DNA of 64,000 nucleotides, from NCBI RefSeq assembly GCF_988242995.1, contig NZ_OZ547043.1, one strand, 5' to 3'. Of this stretch, positions 6,700-33,361 are shown one piece after another. The translations under genes and the position numbers were made by a program. The notes beneath the pieces were generated by a model. That model made no database searches. It was given only the letters and a program-made list of their open reading frames with translations, and was not told where the DNA came from. The first letter of the stretch is position 1, and every line of letters begins with the position of its first letter.

Positions 6700-7890
6700 T
6701 TAATTGCTGTTAACCGAGGTGACCAGATTTGCCAGGTATTTATCGGTAATACGCTGGCGCAGGGTCAGGTTTTCAAGAGGAGGCACCGGTGTATAGTCGT
6801 AGTCGATATACAGTTTTCCGGCCTTGAGGGTTTCCGCATCGTTGGATTCTTCGCTGAACCAGCAGGTCGCATCCACGATATAGCCGTTTGTTTTCAGCTC
6901 ACGGAATTTGGCATTGATGCCGTCAACGATGTCGCGAATCAGCGTTGCGGTGATGGGCTTGTCCACCGCCCACATGTGCGCCTCAGCCATCGTGTCGGCC
7001 ATCACCTGCGCGGTGCGGGTGTAGTTTTCAAAGAGGAACAGCGGGTCATCAGAGCAGGTACGGTTACCCCAGAATCGGAAACCGTCGCGGCGAATCAGCG
7101 TAGTGACGCCTGACTCGTTAAGCAGGTCAGCATCGGTGCCGGACTCCTGCAAATCCCAGAATACAGATGCGCTGATGCCGGTAACACCGTTTACCCCGAC
7201 GTTGGACAGCGTTTTATGCCAGCCCTGCTCCTGGTCGATTTTAGCGCGCAGACCCAGCGCACGGGCGGTGGCATACGCGGTGGCGGTGGTACTGGTGACC
7301 GTATCCCATGCGAGGAAATCCGGCCAGATGACCATCAGCTCACGCTGGCTGAAATTCTGGCGGTAGGCTTTCACCTCGGAAATGGTCTTACAGCCCCATG
7401 CGCTGATATATCCGAAAGCGCGCAGCTTCTGACAGACGGATGCCAGTGCAACAGCCACCTCTTTGGTATCCAGTCCCGGCACGCCGAGAATACGCGGTTT
7501 AACACCGGTTACCGACTCCGCCGCCAGCAGGGCTTTCAGTCCGGTGTACTGACCGTTTTCGTCGGTGGTGCCGATGATATTGGAAACGGTCTGCGCAAGT
7601 TTCGTTTCCTCGTCATCACCGGTGCCGTCTTCCACGCGCACGACAACGGTGACCGGTTTTGACTGGTCAGCGATGGCCTGCAACGATGCCGCCAGCGTGC
7701 CTTTTTTACCGGCCTTTGCAATTGCGCTCTGCACATTGGTAATCAGCACCGGTTTATTGAGGGGGAAGGTTTCCGCATCCGCATCGCTGGCCGTGCAGAC
7801 CATGCCGACAATGGCAGTGGATACGGTGGAAATGACGCGGGTGCCGTCGTTAATCTCCAGCACCTGCACGCCGTGATGATAGTCACTCAT
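6700..7890 (-). CDS. FI: Contractile tail sheath protein gpFI
   Basis: 396 aa, P2 FI length and position. Confidence 0.9.
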   Translation of the reverse strand: MSDYHHGVQVLEINDGTRVISTVSTAIVGMVCTASDADAETFPLNKPVLITNVQSAIAKAGKKGTLAASLQAIADQSKPVTVVVRVEDGTGDDEETKLAQTVSNIIGTTDENGQYTGLKALLAAESVTGVKPRILGVPGLDTKEVAVALASVCQKLRAFGYISAWGCKTISEVKAYRQNFSQRELMVIWPDFLAWDTVTSTTATAYATARALGLRAKIDQEQGWHKTLSNVGVNGVTGISASVFWDLQESGTDADLLNESGVTTLIRRDGFRFWGNRTCSDDPLFLFENYTRTAQVMADTMAEAHMWAVDKPITATLIRDIVDGINAKFRELKTNGYIVDATCWFSEESNDAETLKAGKLYIDYDYTPVPPLENLTLRQRITDKYLANLVTSVNSN

Positions 7891-8206
7891 CCGTTTAACT
7901 CCGTGGTTAATGGGTGCAACTATTTTCTGTTGTGCAGAGCATGAGACGCTATTTGCCCTGGATGGTCAGTGGATGAAACAACAGATACAGAAAAGGCGGG
8001 CAATTCGCCCGCATTTCCTAATTTGTACTAACCCAGCTTCCAACTGACAATTTACGTAGCCAAAAAGCTATCAAGTCTGGCAGACTGATTTGTACGAGGT
8101 GTGGATAACCATAATTATGTGCATGCTAACATCACGGTGCATGAGTCAATCGGGTCTATGCCAAAGAATTACGCCTTGATTGACCATAGATTGCTTGCCC
8201 TTGAAT

Positions 8207-8235
8207 TTGACCATTCCAATAAAATGAATTATGAT
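8207..8235 (+). promoter_or_regulatory. Near-consensus sigma70 promoter for cargo gene at 8258
   Basis: -35 TTGACC (8207-8212), 17-bp spacer, -10 TATGAT (8230-8235); followed by GGAGG RBS at 8247-8251. Confidence 0.45.
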
Positions 8236-8257
8236 AATCGTCAAATGGAGGTGCACA

Positions 8258-8902
8258 ATGATCAAACACACCGCAGCAGAAAGGGAAACCAACACTTCAG
8301 CTAAGCTGAATGAATACCAGTTGAACCTTCTGAAAAGAATTAACAACCTCGCTATTTCCCTGATGCCTGAATTTGAAGACAAAAACCAGGCAATTAATGC
8401 TATCACGCTGGATGATAGTTCACTGATGCAATTGCTCTACACCGTTCAACTCGAACAGAAGACTCGTGTCAATGACTACGAACTACGTAAAGTGCGCCGT
8501 CGTCGCGAAAATCTGGAACGATTTTATCGTGGGCTTCAGGAGTTAGGCGGTACGCTAAAGGTAAATGACGTGGTCGATATTCTTGGAATCACCCGCCAGG
8601 CGATCAACATTCGCGTTAAGAAGAACAAGCTTTTAGCATTCAAGCAGAACGGTGATTTTATTTTCCCGAAATTTCAGTTCACAGATAACGGGCTGATTCC
8701 CGGCTTTGAAGACGTAATGGCGGCATTTGACGAGAATACCCATCCAATGCTGAGGTTGGGTGTGCTGAAATCACCAATAGAGGTTAATAGCGAAGGCCTG
8801 AAAAAGACGCCGATTCAAATCATGCAGGACGGCGCTAAAAATAGTGAACTTAGTCTGGCTATCCGTGCCGCTAAACAGTTCGGAAATCATGTATCCAGTT
8901 AA
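8258..8902 (+). CDS. Cargo protein with HTH and C-terminal DUF2384-like (Xre/ParS/MbcA antitoxin-like) region plus a ~110-aa N-terminal extension of unknown function
   Basis: 214 aa from ATG 8258 with GGAGG RBS; HTH-like DILGITRQAINIRVKK; C-terminal HPMLRLGVLKSPIEVNSEGLKKTPIQIM resembles the toxin-binding domain of RES-Xre antitoxins; ~40% GC versus ~52% in flanking phage genes. Confidence 0.55.
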   Translation: MIKHTAAERETNTSAKLNEYQLNLLKRINNLAISLMPEFEDKNQAINAITLDDSSLMQLLYTVQLEQKTRVNDYELRKVRRRRENLERFYRGLQELGGTLKVNDVVDILGITRQAINIRVKKNKLLAFKQNGDFIFPKFQFTDNGLIPGFEDVMAAFDENTHPMLRLGVLKSPIEVNSEGLKKTPIQIMQDGAKNSELSLAIRAAKQFGNHVSS

Positions 8903-8913
8903 TTGTTTTAAAA

Positions 8914-8935
8914 AGAGGGGCTAGCCAGCCCCTCT
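8914..8935. terminator. Terminator hairpin shared by the convergent cargo genes
   Basis: Perfect stem agaggggc / gcccctct with 6-nt loop in the 38-bp gap between the two convergent stop codons; flanked by A/T runs. Confidence 0.5.
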
Positions 8936-8940
8936 TTGGT

Positions 8941-9651
8941 TTACATTGGTTCTGGCGTAATTTCGAATCCAAGCAGTTCTTCGAACATCTCTTCACCTGA
9001 CATCGTTCCTTTGTGCCACCCTTTAGGGAAGATACCTTCGTCATTTTCGATGTAACTGGCATAAGGCACCATCCCCTGAGGGGTATCGGTAAAGGCTGGT
9101 GTACTATCCGGTCGTTCCCAAAAGGCATAACAGCGTTTATAGCGTTTATGCCTTGAGGTATAGGCTATCCCGTCATAGTCACGCCCGAAATGTGTATAAA
9201 GATGTTCCATTAGCCATTGAGTAAAAGTGTAATCCTCGTTCTCTAAGCTATCCAAAGGAATATGTAACAACTCACAGAGCGCTACAACATCGATCACTTT
9301 CACTGGCCTCATGACATCCACAGAGCACATATAGTGTTGTGAAAGTACCGATTCAGGATAAGAAATCGTCCCTTCGAGATGGAGCAAACGCCCATAAGCT
9401 TCTGCCGCCGCCGTTAACGCAGAGTCAGAGGCATACCATACCGCCACACATCCCCCTGGGGGGTTGTATCGCCCACATTCATTTTCCTCAATTGGCGCTC
9501 TGAAGTTGATTGCGCTTTCATACAACGCCCTTTGATGACGCTTCAAAAGACCAGAGCCTGGTTGAATGTCAATCGCCGGAATACGTCCAGATTTATTTTT
9601 TGCAGCAATTCCTTGTGCAACAATATTTTTTTCAAATGTCCATTTGGTCAT
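8941..9651 (-). CDS. RES-domain protein (predicted NAD+-targeting toxin-like effector)
   Basis: 236 aa from ATG 9651 with AAGGAG RBS; motif ECGRYNPPGGCVAVWYASDSALTAAAEAY resembles the RES-domain core (GGRWNPP...YLADS...E in MbcT/ParT-type toxins); candidate Ser in GIAYTSRH; low GC. Confidence 0.6.
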   Translation of the reverse strand: MTKWTFEKNIVAQGIAAKNKSGRIPAIDIQPGSGLLKRHQRALYESAINFRAPIEENECGRYNPPGGCVAVWYASDSALTAAAEAYGRLLHLEGTISYPESVLSQHYMCSVDVMRPVKVIDVVALCELLHIPLDSLENEDYTFTQWLMEHLYTHFGRDYDGIAYTSRHKRYKRCYAFWERPDSTPAFTDTPQGMVPYASYIENDEGIFPKGWHKGTMSGEEMFEELLGFEITPEPM

Positions 9652-10345
9652 TTTTACTACTCCTTCTATAAACAGATTAAGCCATAGGCTCCTCTCCATA
9701 TTGATTGAAAATAATCCCTACCGTGCTTGCCCGGCAGGGGGTATGAGAACATGTGTATCTCAATCTCGATTATACCAAGCAAATTTTCTATTTTTCGGAA
9801 ATTTAGAGAGTTTTTTTAATGCTTCGCATGCCTTCTCGATGTATTGATGGGGCTGAAAAGAAGAAATAACGCAGGAAGTTTTACGGAAAGGAGAACTATA
9901 AAGATTTTTTTCAAGTGAATTAGAAATAAGAACTTCGCAGGATACTGCATTTTTAGTGAAGATGGGTTGAGTTTCTCAGCAAGAGTCCCGCGAGAGCCGT
10001 ATTGACAGCATGCATGACTCGGAGATTATTCCCCATGCAGGATGGTACACCAATGCAAGAGTTGGTTTACGCAAATGATTGGATGATCGCGATTACCGAC
10101 CGTACATTGCGCAAATAACGTTCTGCGTCGATGCTATTAAGATGCCCCGACCACACCGTACGACGGACGCCGTAGTGATCCGAGCTTAAGAATAGATAAT
10201 CTTTTCTCTCCGGATTCACCGTTCGCAGTGCGTTTTCCATAGCTGTCGCAAGCACAATACTTCCGCTACAGGCACAGAGCGGACTGTCAGATTAGGTTTT
10301 ACTCTGTGCCATAGATGAGTAATCTCACACCAGATCTAATACGAT

Positions 10346-10924
10346 TTATTGTGGCATTTCAGGCCATTCTATATCCGGAGCATCTTCCGGCTGAACGCGA
10401 TTCAGTAGCACACGGTATTTTTTCCAGTGTGTCAGGCTTAACTTTTCTTCCTCGGTAGCCATATCTAAATCGACAGCATCCTGCAGCGTGGCAATAATTT
10501 CACCTGCATATGCAATCAGCTCTTTCTTCTGAGAGTCAGCCGCTCTGACAAGCGCATCACGCTCTGCATTCTCATCATTCACCCACGCATTTCCGTTCCA
10601 TTTCTGATAATCCCCATCCGGGGAAATGGCTGTCACGTCTGGAGGTAATGCGCCAAGTTCAGAAATATAAATGGCTGCTCCCGTTTTCGTTTCGTAGACA
10701 GTCTTTCCGCGATGATCTTCCATCAACTCCCATTTTATTTCATCTGCATTGAAAACGGCTGCATAACCAGCCGGTATATCAGGCGGCGCAATATCTGTAC
10801 TGTTTGCAGGCAGACCTGTATACGGTGGAATATACGCGTCACTTTCCCCAATAAATTCATTGGTTCCATCAAGTAAATTAAATACGCGGATAGTTTGTGC
10901 TTCTGCACTCATTCTGAAAGCCAT
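10346..10924 (-). CDS. G: Tail fiber assembly protein gpG
   Basis: 192 aa, directly downstream of H with overlapping stop/start, P2 G position. Confidence 0.85.
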
Positions 10925-25554: not shown

Positions 25555-27387
25555 TCAAACAGAGCCCTGTTCAAAAACAGTATCAAAATATGGTAGGAGA
25601 GGATAAGCACACAGAAAGAAAATCAGGATGCATGCATATGTCGTTGTTTCATCGTAACAAGCATTAGTATATAAATTACCATGTGCTAATTTATGTCTTA
25701 AGGTTGCCCCACTCTTTCTGTTAAAAAGAACATCGATAGTCAAAACAAGATTTTTAGAAAAGATACTTTCCAAATCATCTCTGCATTTATCTAGAAGCTG
25801 AGAAATACTTGTTGACTCCTCTAATCCCTTATCCAAATATCTAGTAGCATCCTTTCCACTAAGCTCATAATAATAACGAACCATACCTTCCATTTGTGGT
25901 ATTAAAAGATAAGCTGCACTGATGTAATCTCCCTGCCATAATTTGTAAAAGCCCAAATTAAAAATCTCCCTAAACTCCGGCTTGACAATTGGACTAGTTG
26001 TAACCAATTTAACGAATGTTGACAACGTCAAGCCATGTTCTTGAGAAAGTACATAGCGAGCAGGTTCAAAGACACCGTTTACAAAAATCTTATGAGTAAT
26101 CTCGAAATTTCTTAGATATTGATCAATAACAACATCATCACTCATATCTTTTTTATTATCCAACGGCGGGATTGTATATATCTTACGCCCACTCTCATCA
26201 TTAATTTCTGTTCCAACAAAACTAGAGAATAAACTTTTTTCTGATAATCTTAAAACTTGTTCCCTCATGCTTTCAATATTTTCAATCGGTGTTTCACTCA
26301 TTAAAACTTTGAATATATCGGGCAAAGAACGCCCCGTCAGTTTTTTTTCACTTTCAGCAACCAAGTCACTAATATCAATAGAATGGCTTAAAGTGACATA
26401 TTCACTCCTTACTTCTTCTCTCAAATTAGCAAGTTGTTCCTTTAAATCTTCTATCTGTTGGCTATCACCACCGTACTGTCTTAATTCAGAGATAGCTGTT
26501 CTTAACCAAGAGATCTTACCCATATTATCAGGTCGTTCTGTTGCAACTTTAATAGTAATATTTGCAGATGCCAGTTTACATCTCTTGGCACGTTCATACT
26601 CACCATTTTTTTCATAAATAACTGCACTTGTCATATAAAGTGATTTTACAGCATCATAATATTTTTTATCTTTATGCTGCTCAGCCATCTTCTCAGCATT
26701 TTCCGCATACTGCAGATTATACCCATCAAAATCACGCACCATAAACCAAGTCAAATTATTGAAACCTTCAAAGATTAATCTTTCATTTTGAATACTATAA
26801 AGAGAATGAATGGCATTTTTAATCGCCATGTTTCCTTCTGATTTTCTAGGGTAGACCATTTTATTAATGTGCAAAGCCCTAGCAATATAATCACGAGCAA
26901 AAATAAAGCAATTTAAATCACTTTCATCCATGCTTTCGTTTTTTATTATTAGCTTTTCAATTGCTATATTTAGCATTTCAGCATAGGAATCAATTGCTTT
27001 AATTGCCACGTCTTTATTTTTCCGATTATTACACCAAACAACATCATATATTCTTGATAACAAAAATGGATTGGTTATTTTTTGAGAAACATATAAAAGA
27101 CAGTCATTCACCTGCTCATCAAAATCTTCAGGCAATATTGATCTTTTATTACCCCAAATCATTTGGGGTTCAAATGCTGGAGTGTTGTTAACAACTTGCA
27201 AATTGAAACTATATAGCATACCAAAAAGAGATGCTAATTTTTTCTCTTTGGGGTTTTCTGATGACTCAGCAATCCCATCCAGATATTTTTTTATTTTATG
27301 TGCATGAAATGTAACTGGTATATACATAAAAACACTATAATCTAGTGTTTCAAGCTCTTCCCTTGTAAGAACAAAGATATCATTCAT
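25555..27387 (-). CDS. Cargo protein, 611 aa, unknown family; C-terminal R-x4-H (HEPN-like) motif; candidate single-gene defence/abortive-infection effector
   Basis: Large ORF in the P2 tin/old position between cos and A; ~30-35% GC on sampled lines versus ~52% flanks; ATG 27387 with AAGGTG RBS (track start 27492 is a TTG); motif RHKLAH encoded at 25681-25698; no Walker A seen. Confidence 0.6.
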   Translation of the reverse strand: MNDIFVLTREELETLDYSVFMYIPVTFHAHKIKKYLDGIAESSENPKEKKLASLFGMLYSFNLQVVNNTPAFEPQMIWGNKRSILPEDFDEQVNDCLLYVSQKITNPFLLSRIYDVVWCNNRKNKDVAIKAIDSYAEMLNIAIEKLIIKNESMDESDLNCFIFARDYIARALHINKMVYPRKSEGNMAIKNAIHSLYSIQNERLIFEGFNNLTWFMVRDFDGYNLQYAENAEKMAEQHKDKKYYDAVKSLYMTSAVIYEKNGEYERAKRCKLASANITIKVATERPDNMGKISWLRTAISELRQYGGDSQQIEDLKEQLANLREEVRSEYVTLSHSIDISDLVAESEKKLTGRSLPDIFKVLMSETPIENIESMREQVLRLSEKSLFSSFVGTEINDESGRKIYTIPPLDNKKDMSDDVVIDQYLRNFEITHKIFVNGVFEPARYVLSQEHGLTLSTFVKLVTTSPIVKPEFREIFNLGFYKLWQGDYISAAYLLIPQMEGMVRYYYELSGKDATRYLDKGLEESTSISQLLDKCRDDLESIFSKNLVLTIDVLFNRKSGATLRHKLAHGNLYTNACYDETTTYACILIFFLCAYPLLPYFDTVFEQGSV

Positions 27388-27506
27388 CGTTTTCACCTTT
27401 TTCAGTATAAATTTGCACGCATTATTATTAGCAACATAATCATCAATAGTTAACACATGCAGATAGACAGCAATTTTACTATTATGCAACAAATTAAATC
27501 AGATGT

Positions 27507-32347: not shown

Positions 32348-33361
32348 ATGGCAATCAAAAAACTCGATGATGGTCGATATGAAGTGGACATCCGCCCTAC
32401 TGGACGTAATGGAAAACGCATCCGTAGGAAGTTTGATAAGAAAAGCGAAGCTGTCGCTTTCGAGAAATACACGTTGTACAACCACCACAATAAAGAATGG
32501 CTATCAAAACCAACAGACAAGCGACGTCTGTCGGAGCTGACACAGATCTGGTGGGATTTAAAGGGTAAACACGAAGAGCATGGGAGATCTAATCTTGGAA
32601 AAATTGAAATCTTCACAAAAATAACGAATGACCCATGCGCATTTCAAATTTCGAAATCGCTTATCAGCCAGTACTGCGCCACCCGAAGAAGTCAGGGTAT
32701 TAAACCTTCGAGTATCAATCGTGATTTAACATGTATTAGCGGCATGTTTACAGCCCTGATTGAAGCGGAGTTATTCTTTGGTGAGCACCCTATCAGAGGG
32801 ACAAAAAGGCTTAAGGAGGAAAAACCAGACACAGGCTATCTCACGCAGGAAGAAATTGCCTTACTGCTTGCTGCTCTTGACGGCGACAACAAAAAGATTG
32901 CGATTCTTTGCCTGAGTACTGGAGCACGTTGGGGAGAAGCAGCTCGTTTGAAAGCAGAAAATATTATCCATAACCGCGTCACGTTTGTTAAAACGAAAAC
33001 AAACAAACCACGCACCGTCCCGATCTCAGAGGCTGTTGCCAAAATGATCGCGGATAACAAACGAGGTTTTTTATTCCCTGATGCTGATTACCCTCGCTTC
33101 AGACGAACAATGAAAGCAATAAAACCGGATTTGCCAATGGGGCAAGCCACACATGCACTAAGGCACAGCTTTGCCACTCATTTCATGATTAATGGAGGAA
33201 GTATTATCACGCTACAACGGATACTAGGTCACACACGGATTGAGCAAACTATGGTTTACGCTCATTTTGCGCCAGAGTACCTTCAGGACGCCATTTCTCT
33301 TAATCCGCTAAGAGGTGGTACTGAGGCTGAGAGTGTCCACACAGTGTCCACAGTAGAGTAA
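32348..33361 (+). CDS. int: Tyrosine integrase
   Basis: 337 aa, P2 Int length; catalytic-region motifs (ARWGE, HALRHSFATH, VYAHF); 80 bp from attR. Confidence 0.9.
   Translation: MAIKKLDDGRYEVDIRPTGRNGKRIRRKFDKKSEAVAFEKYTLYNHHNKEWLSKPTDKRRLSELTQIWWDLKGKHEEHGRSNLGKIEIFTKITNDPCAFQISKSLISQYCATRRSQGIKPSSINRDLTCISGMFTALIEAELFFGEHPIRGTKRLKEEKPDTGYLTQEEIALLLAALDGDNKKIAILCLSTGARWGEAARLKAENIIHNRVTFVKTKTNKPRTVPISEAVAKMIADNKRGFLFPDADYPRFRRTMKAIKPDLPMGQATHALRHSFATHFMINGGSIITLQRILGHTRIEQTMVYAHFAPEYLQDAISLNPLRGGTEAESVHTVSTVE

Follow-up and report, generated by a model that had tools for sequence, protein, structure and literature searches.

A probable RES toxin-antitoxin module with convergent genes in the cargo slot of a P2-like prophage

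Background

How might a lethal NAD+-targeting enzyme be restrained if it is not co-transcribed with the protein that holds it in check? This question is raised by a pair of genes within a 64,000-nucleotide stretch of contig NZ_OZ547043.1 (RefSeq assembly GCF_988242995.1); we refer to the whole of this stretch as the window. The two genes converge on each other inside a P2-like prophage. One encodes a RES-domain protein, and the other encodes a protein that we call the partner. We conclude that the locus is probably a two-gene module of the RES toxin-antitoxin type, carried as prophage cargo and acting by the mechanism proposed below. The two genes are as follows (RBS, ribosome-binding site).

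8258-8902, plus strand: partner gene, encoding a putative antitoxin and regulator of 214 amino acids (open reading frame; RBS GGAGG at 8247-8251, six bases before the ATG)
8941-9651, minus strand: gene for a RES-domain protein of 236 amino acids, a putative NAD+-consuming toxin (open reading frame; GAAGGAG upstream as RBS)

The stop codons of these open reading frames are separated by a 38-bp spacer. An earlier reading of the DNA, which we call the original prediction, had proposed both reading frames, and their coordinates, strands, lengths and quoted motifs were all as it described.

Modules that pair RES toxins with Xre antitoxins have been well studied, and include MbcTA (PMC6436930), NatRT (PMC11535050), KnaAT (PMC10896132) and others (PMC12457610). 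Phage-borne toxin-antitoxin pairs composed of a RES protein and a helix-turn-helix (HTH) protein have also already been noted (Iyer et al. 2022, PMC9503650). Our literature searches found no account of convergent RES modules, nor of a structured leader upstream of a RES toxin gene. In the same searches, the family to which the partner belongs was not described as associated with RES proteins, nor as a family of Rv2175c-like antitoxins.

Results

The minus-strand gene encodes a RES-family protein

The RES protein contains the motifs ECGRYNPPGG, VWYASDS and AAAEA, and matches the Pfam family PF08808 with an E-value of 1.5e-12 (48.3 bits) over residues 44-182. Precomputed matches to this family are present in all 34 of the RES homologues (34/34). 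In an alignment of 13 RES sequences, whose identity extends down to 21%, the residues R61 (in GRYN), Y73 and E84 (in AAAEA) are invariant, and S166 (in YTSRH) is present in 10 of the 13, including the protein in the window. Around the Pfam core, the protein has approximately 40 extra residues at its N terminus and approximately 50 at its C terminus.

We compared an AlphaFold2 (AF2) model of the RES protein, taken from the fused construct described below, to solved structures using Foldseek. The best solved match is MbcT (6fkg_B, E=6.4e-6, template-modelling score TM(target) 0.62), followed in order by NatT, VPA0770, RES-Pp, ParT and the catalytic domain of diphtheria toxin. When searched against solved structures, a profile made from the 13 aligned sequences matched no solved RES toxin at E<=10, and single-sequence searches of solved structures with each of the two window proteins gave chance matches only. 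Judging from the Pfam match and the modelled fold, the protein is predicted to be a RES-family enzyme with the ADP-ribosyltransferase (ART) fold. The assignment to RES in the original prediction is thus supported. A protein that is 99% identical carries the RefSeq name 'RES family NAD+ phosphorylase', which is a family-level label.

The partner belongs to a family related to Rv2175c

The partner has no match in Pfam, DUF2384 included, even at E<=10, and searches with both proteins against NCBIfam and PADLOC-DB v2 (PADLOC at E<=1) matched nothing. The sole direct family match is that of residues 99-130 to an excisionase-type HTH in PHROG. In the AF2 model of the partner, which has a predicted local distance difference test (pLDDT) of 91.6, five N-terminal helices (to approximately residue 95) are followed by a winged HTH (99-140) and a C-terminal helical domain (150-207).

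An exhaustive search defined a partner family of 601 cluster representatives at E<=1e-3. Most members are approximately 200-250 amino acids long, and they match best over partner residues ~75-213. We aligned 46 sequences of this family (alignment A1). Its conserved core reads GG..K...VA..LG..RQ.V...(K)LLA....YP.FQF and is followed by a C-terminal segment with the pattern ...P...L..G....R.A...G.H. The A1 profile matches Rv2175c of Mycobacterium tuberculosis (PDB 2kfs, chain 2kfs_A) at E=1.5e-7, and this match spans both domains of Rv2175c. Rv2175c is a winged-HTH DNA-binding protein with a C-terminal domain and is a substrate of the kinase PknL. Our literature searches turned up nothing that connects Rv2175c-like proteins with RES toxins, and the papers found do not treat Rv2175c as an antitoxin. 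Individual A1 members match domain families as follows.

HTH_17: 14 of 46 members at E<=0.001; 34 of 46 at E<=0.1
Rv2175c_wHTH (PF21531): 8 of 46 at E<=0.001; 19 of 46 at E<=0.1
Xre-MbcA-ParS_M (PF23125, middle domain): 1 of 46 at E<=0.001; 18 of 46 at E<=0.1
Rv2175c_C (PF18367): 1 of 46 at E<=0.001; 5 of 46 at E<=0.1
DUF2384 (PF09722): 0 of 46 at E<=0.001; 2 of 46 at E<=0.1

Some structural matches to the partner in the AlphaFold Database set AFDB50 (approximately 200-220 aligned columns, E-values of about 1e-9 to 1e-8) are annotated as DUF2384, and others carry the annotation 'Antitoxin Xre/MbcA/ParS-like toxin-binding domain-containing protein'. Among solved structures, Rv2175c is the closest, and the similarity to DUF2384 antitoxins is weaker. 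The C-terminal domain of the partner is similar to the toxin-binding domains found in MbcA and VPA0769.

It had been predicted that the partner has an HTH and a C terminus resembling DUF2384, and profile searches for PF08808 and DUF2384 had been suggested as a check. These searches found the RES family in the one protein and, even at E<=10, no DUF2384 in the other. The HTH is present, and it is of the excisionase/MerR-like winged type (HTH_17, Rv2175c_wHTH), not of the Xre type. The resemblance to DUF2384 appears to hold at the level of family and fold, as the related helical domain and the AFDB annotations indicate, although the partner itself fails the profile. An N-terminal region of about 110 amino acids had also been singled out as extra. 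The region does exist (approximately 95-110 amino acids), but it is found across the family, in convergent and operon-type relatives alike. Because the extension occurs in both of the clades described in the next section, it is no peculiarity of the locus in the window.

The partner and RES genes remain together in unrelated contexts

In the close family (55-100% identity), every sampled locus has the convergent pair, and the surrounding contexts are unrelated. For example, a copy in E. coli A28 that is 87% identical lies outside any P2 prophage and adjoins ArdC, DUF5710 and IS66. The extent of homology to this copy delimits the following element.

8207-9782, both strands: mobile two-gene cassette (extent of homology to the E. 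coli A28 copy, query 308-1883)

Because this homology runs from the -35 element of the partner promoter to just past the -10 element of the RES promoter, the cassette moves together with both of its promoters. Of the other close copies, one in Pantoea sp. A4 has a PDC-M01 candidate defence pair at a distance of 1.4 kb, one in Kalamiella is situated between exbD and a transporter gene, and one lies on a contig that bears MobI (L005). A scan of genome contigs with the DNA motif of the RES leader (see below) found five loci, and further convergent pairs are present in Pluralibacter, Proteus and Rahnella. More distantly, three partner homologues on metagenomic contigs (P0170, P0183 and P0190; 25-32% identity) have a convergent RES gene 30-40 bp downstream. 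Overall, at least 10 unrelated contexts contain the convergent pair, its orientation and spacing unchanged, and the identity of the partner falls to approximately 25% among them.

Other relatives have an operon-like layout. In P0201, P0220, P0208 and P0193, the partner gene comes first and the RES gene is co-directional; three of these partner genes overlap RES, and that of P0208 ends 18 bp upstream of it. Relatives of this operon type are common on plasmids (202 records). These plasmids belong to Alphaproteobacteria, Betaproteobacteria and cyanobacteria, and in them the partner is annotated as 'hypothetical protein'. All of the plasmid RES relatives that we inspected have such partner-family genes upstream, and the protein encoded upstream of RES on Afipia pOC167B matches A1 with an hhalign probability of 98.2%. 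The association of the partner family with RES genes is obligate-looking. An orphan partner with 34% identity (P0159; L006 4001-4642, GCA_023988745.1) has no RES gene and lies between a relE/HTH_3 pair and a hipBA pair. In a neighbour-joining tree of A1 with a midpoint root, all four co-directional cases fall into one clade and all convergent cases into the other. The latter clade includes the locus in the window, and wherever its sampled members have a RES neighbour, the two genes are convergent. The layouts in this small sample fit a single inversion that has been retained since.

Only two contigs in IMG/VR have the cassette, and both are 100% identical and come from the same prophage type. 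We therefore do not regard the module as generally phage-borne.

Some copies have further features. In Pantoea sp. A4, the neighbouring PDC-M01A/B is a two-gene candidate defence system (L003 8752-11276; E=7e-246 and 9e-128). In Rahnella ecdela (NZ_JAFMOY010000100.1), a complete cassette (L018 5337-6883) shares its contig with a partial inverted copy (L019 6767-7060) that consists only of the RES promoter, the leader and the first 47 RES codons.

A complex of the two proteins is predicted

We modelled the two proteins as a fused chain with AF2, based on an alignment (A3) of 15 paired partner-(GGGGS)8-RES fusions plus 28 unpaired rows, arranged in blocks. The model has a mean pLDDT of 82.6 and a predicted template-modelling score (pTM) of 0.77, and only the 40-residue linker and the first ten residues have pLDDT values below 50. 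By our own estimate, if the halves were placed independently, the pTM of a chain of 490 residues would be near 0.45-0.5. The observed pTM exceeds this value and so points to a confidently predicted complex. The model is supportive evidence and suggests that the partner and the RES protein bind each other.

Each gene has its own promoter-like site, and the two share a terminator hairpin

The genes had been predicted to be convergent, with a promoter each and one terminator between them. This arrangement was found, and it is conserved. Its elements are listed below.

8196-8255, plus strand: partner promoter region, embedded in an inverted repeat (promoter scan, repeat search)
8912-8937, both strands: hairpin of a bidirectional intrinsic terminator common to both genes (11 pairs, 6 of them GC)
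9777-9769, minus strand: RES promoter, with an extended -10 element TGGTATAAT and no recognisable -35 element (read by eye from the sequence)
9652-9762, minus strand: conserved, structured 5' leader of the RES gene, approximately 110 nt (nucleotide conservation, RNAalifold, folding)

The partner promoter (TTGACC-17-TATGAT, 8207-8235) agrees with the consensus at 10 of 12 positions; its -35 element is at 8207-8212 and its -10 element at 8230-8235. The leader that follows is only about 16 nt long and has a strong RBS. The promoter is contained in a 27-nt imperfect inverted repeat with arms at 8196-8222 and 8229-8255 that are 70% complementary and have the core ATTTGAC ... GTCAAAT. In five orthologous cassettes, TTGAC and GTCAAA(T)GGAGG are invariant. 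The repeat is a plausible candidate for an operator at which the partner would repress its own gene. In considering this idea, it is important to keep in mind that bases of the repeat double as the -35 element and the context of the RBS.

The predicted folding energy of the terminator hairpin is -20.2 kcal/mol (z = -4.5) for one strand and -18.6 kcal/mol (z = -4.3) for the other, and none of 200 shuffled sequences folded as well. On the minus strand it is followed by a T-run, and on the plus strand by a weaker T-rich tail. The hairpin that had been predicted at 8914-8935 is therefore present, although it extends over 8912-8937. The window, A28, Pantoea, Kalamiella and L005 all have a GC-rich hairpin here, and the distant convergent locus L008 has a different hairpin. 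In the spacer of another distant locus, L014, no such terminator hairpin is evident.

The RES gene has a conserved structured leader

In seven orthologous cassettes, the extended -10 element of the RES promoter is retained as GGTATAAT, GGTGTAAT or GGTACAAT. A simple consensus scan missed this promoter because the -35 element is lacking.

The nucleotides of the RES leader are conserved among cassettes whose proteins share only 55-60% identity. The leader begins with a stem-loop (9762-9744, minus strand) whose sequence varies by sub-clade while its pairing is retained. There follows a hairpin, which we call HP1 (9739-9716, minus strand; CCCUGCCG-GGCAAGCA-CGGUAGGG), whose loop GGCAAGCA is conserved and in which four of the eight pairs have compensatory changes across seven sequences, according to RNAalifold. 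The folding z-score is -2.9 for HP1 and -2.7 for the whole leader. Since a U-rich stretch follows it, HP1 looks like a terminator. This stretch is found in most cassettes, but not in all of them. Pantoea has only a weak version of it and L005 none, so it may be that HP1 does not terminate transcription as an attenuator in every cassette. The leader then contains an invariant block (9699-9672, minus strand) with the hairpin AGCC-UAU-GGCU, and the RBS GAAGGAG. A search of 7880-10360 against Rfam at E<=1 gave no match. The distant convergent members L008 and L014 have long upstream regions in which we found no homologous leader.

The invariant block also contains GGAG, then 7-8 nt, and then a mini-ORF (open reading frame) of two codons, AUG GCU UAA, and the AUG of this mini-ORF is located in the AGCC-UAU-GGCU hairpin's loop. 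The sole variable base in the orthologues turns UAA into UGA, so the stop codon is kept. The mini-ORF may be a start-stop regulatory element.

Two further candidates in this region were rejected. The first was a RES protein of 252 amino acids beginning at the in-frame ATG at 9699. This start was ruled out by in-frame stops in orthologues, since Pantoea and L005 have a stop two codons past this ATG. The second was that 9 nt of the HP1 loop (GGGCAAGCA) are complementary to 8193-8201, a site upstream of the partner's promoter. We attribute this complementarity to chance; the site is outside of the conserved cassette and is absent in A28.

The Kalamiella orthologue (L004 5965-5995) is without the conserved leader. 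Its RES RBS is located inside a hairpin, CUCCUUC-GUAA-GAAGGGAG, which, on the basis of this pairing, would be a different way to limit translation of the toxin.

Judging from these elements, we infer that expression of the partner is high and that expression of the toxin is throttled, and that this difference would replace the stoichiometric control that an operon provides.

The cassette occupies a variable cargo slot

The cassette is located between the tail sheath gene FI (6700-7890, minus strand) and the tail-fibre-assembly gene G (10346-10924, minus strand). A near-identical stretch (99.7%) is present in 9 of 5426 complete E. coli genomes, and in each of these it belongs to a P2-like prophage and lies in the interval between the sheath and tail-fibre-assembly genes. 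In the 99.7% identical E. coli prophage, RefSeq labels the two genes 'RES family NAD+ phosphorylase' and 'hypothetical protein', and its annotation agrees with the predicted location of the pair between FI and G, in the position of Z/fun in P2. The gene that P2 carries in this slot, Z/fun, is an exclusion gene. The slot's cargo in P2 consists of two co-directional genes encoding 85 and 233 amino acids, which are unrelated to the RES and partner genes. In a megablast search against phages, P2, Wphi and others matched only about 200 bp of flanking sequence (8% coverage), and the cargo was unmatched. The contents of the slot are variable among P2-like prophages.

The GC content is 44.5% for the partner gene, 45.6% for the RES gene and 56.5% for the sheath gene. 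Both cassette genes are foreign-looking in base composition. The low GC content that had been reported for the pair is thus borne out relative to the sheath gene, but it is nearer 45% than the claimed value of about 40%.

Between the cassette and gene G, an open reading frame of 62 amino acids (10067-10255, minus strand) has a match to transposase families, in their C-terminal part (PHROG 1631, E=1.7e-6). It appears to have been left behind by earlier traffic through this slot. In many other E. coli P2-like prophages, the slot contains an IS3-family transposase and hypothetical genes.

The prophage itself extends over approximately 1300-33400 and is inserted between pflB/focA and pflA, judging from the near-identical region of E. 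coli SA186; its integrase is encoded at 32348-33361. The other cargo hotspot of P2, the interval between replication gene A and the portal gene, contains a gene for a protein of approximately 610 amino acids (25555-27492, minus strand). This protein is assigned to DUF7380 by RefSeq in the near-identical SA186 prophage and matches the PADLOC candidate defence family PDC-S39 (E=3.5e-84). On this evidence, two cargo modules may be present in the prophage. The P2 hotspot next to cos has been treated by Rousset et al. 2022 (PMC9122126).

Discussion

Proposed mechanism

We propose the following mechanism for the module. The RES protein would be an ART-fold enzyme that consumes NAD+ or transfers from it, and it would arrest or kill the cell when free. 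The partner would hold the RES protein inactive by binding it via the C-terminal helical domain, and its winged HTH would probably also repress transcription. The genes are not co-transcribed, and an excess of the partner would instead be set by the design of the locus. On the partner's side this design would comprise a near-consensus promoter, a strong RBS and a very short leader; on the toxin's side, a promoter without a -35 element, a long structured leader and a terminator-like hairpin. If the partner is labile, as we infer, then its loss or a stop in its synthesis would free RES protein that had already been made. Possible triggers would be transcription shut-off by a phage, loss of the element, or a signal sensed by the partner's variable N-terminal domain.

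A broader proposal can be built upon this mechanism. According to it, convergent RES modules would be a distinct and widespread class, making up about half of the 601-representative family, in which balance is achieved by independent transcription and the leader, the module senses transcription shut-off or a specific trigger that acts on the leader or on the variable N-terminal domain of the partner, and abortive-infection defence is its function in the prophage. We find this extension possible, but doubtful.

It is important to state which observations weigh against our interpretation. Neither protein is matched by any PADLOC or NCBIfam defence model. Because the RES subfamily's own profile matches no solved RES toxin, the subfamily is divergent and its chemistry cannot be assumed. 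The complex was judged from pTM and pLDDT alone, without a control fusion, and the census of gene orientation covers approximately 12 loci. Finally, among known RES systems, NatT needs NatR, and GndR is non-toxic alone (PMC12457610).

Alternative explanations

The alternative that survives best accepts that the module works as described and differs only as to its role, which would be addiction or stabilisation of the carrier element by post-segregational killing, like KnaAT on Klebsiella virulence plasmids. RES-Xre modules do stabilise plasmids (PMC10896132). In addition, the cassette is found on varied mobile DNA (next to ArdC and IS66 in A28, with MobI in L005, and in the prophage), its operon-type relatives are common on plasmids, and a match to any defence model is lacking. 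The original prediction had favoured defence over a plain addiction module because of the unusual architecture; this claim is without direct support, and PADLOC searches at E<=1 found no match. However, an integrated prophage gains little by post-segregational killing, and in some cases a single copy has been inserted between ordinary genes of the chromosome. The contexts that bear on defence are the prophage cargo slot, which in P2 holds an exclusion gene, the PDC-M01 candidate next to one copy (Pantoea), and the mobile elements and toxin-antitoxin islands in which relatives are found. With evidence of this kind on both sides, we regard a stabilising role as a possibility of some substance, short of being probable.

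A second alternative is that the partner is a transcription factor only, which would control the RES promoter or leader without binding the RES protein, whose activity would then be limited purely by expression. The best structural match of the partner is indeed a DNA-binding regulator, Rv2175c, and the independent promoters, the long conserved RES leader and the inverted repeat across the partner promoter could all be accommodated. We nonetheless consider this explanation unlikely. Relatives of the partner form tight operons with RES in which the antitoxin gene comes first and often overlaps the toxin gene, a hallmark of neutralising partners; the C-terminal domain is like the toxin-binding domains of MbcA and VPA0769, and AFDB matches are annotated as DUF2384; and the fused-chain model has a pTM of 0.77.

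Slightly less likely still is that the pair resembles NatRT or GndRX and is a RES system that is domesticated or otherwise non-canonical. RES alone would then be non-toxic, and its activity in a stress response would depend on the partner or be tuned by it. Such behaviour has the precedents of NatT and GndR cited above, and the divergence of the RES subfamily, with its additional residues on both sides of the Pfam core, would be compatible with it. However, natRT belongs to the core genome, whereas the cassette has spread sporadically on mobile DNA, with 9-10 occurrences in 5426 E. coli genomes and a scatter through other Enterobacterales, and the orphan partner without a toxin fits the loss of a harmful gene.

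That the two genes are unrelated neighbours whose convergence is an accident of insertion, as the absence of a common operon and the transposase fragment at 10067-10255 might suggest, is refuted by the comparative data, in which the pair recurs with one orientation and spacing in at least 10 unrelated contexts to approximately 25% partner identity, and in which homology to the non-phage A28 copy is bounded by the two promoters.

Significance

Co-directional operons are the usual assumption in searches for type II toxin-antitoxin systems, and such searches would pass over a deep clade of tail-to-tail RES modules. If the distinct class outlined above is real, convergent modules would be missed both by operon-based toxin-antitoxin finders and by current catalogues of defence systems. 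Proteins of the partner family are currently labelled just 'hypothetical' or 'DNA-binding protein'. The locus offers testable elements that bear upon the question with which we began, namely a strong partner promoter within an inverted repeat, a common terminator and a structured toxin leader. In addition, with this locus the second cargo slot of P2-like prophages, which has been studied less, gains a candidate NAD+-depletion module.

Comparison with known systems

Among known systems, the RES-Xre modules (MbcTA, ParST, the RES-Xre pair of P. putida, NatRT, VPA0770-0769 and KnaAT) are the most similar. In common with them, the locus has a RES toxin with the ART fold and the R/E/S residues, and an adjacent partner composed of an HTH and a C-terminal helical domain that appears related, at the level of the fold, to their toxin-binding domain. 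Carriage on mobile DNA and the linkage of toxin and partner are also common to both, and some relatives in the partner family have the antitoxin-first operon. However, the genes in the window are convergent, with their own promoters and a common terminator, rather than forming a co-directional operon. The partner's HTH is an excisionase/MerR-like winged helix instead of the Xre (cro/C1-type) domain, and the partner is approximately 100 amino acids longer because of its N-terminal helical region. Profiles of the solved systems detect neither window protein, and there is no match to PF09722. Finally, the toxin gene in the window has a long, conserved and structured leader.

Three other comparisons are more limited. 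Rv2175c shares with the partner family, by profile match, a winged HTH followed by the Rv2175c-type C-terminal domain, but it is without the N-terminal helical region, and we know of no RES gene with which it is paired. Z/fun and other 'moron' genes between G and FI in P2 occupy the same insertion slot, but they have no similarity in sequence (by nucleotide comparison) and are co-directional. Separate promoters for an enzyme that does harm and for the partner that protects against it are also found in those type II restriction-modification systems whose R and M genes converge, and there too the ratio of the two proteins is set by regulation and not by co-transcription. This last resemblance is a functional analogy only, since the proteins and their chemistry are unrelated, and protection there results from DNA methylation and not from binding of a toxin. 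The locus is, in sum, a new architectural variant of the RES toxin-antitoxin modules, rather than a new kind of system.

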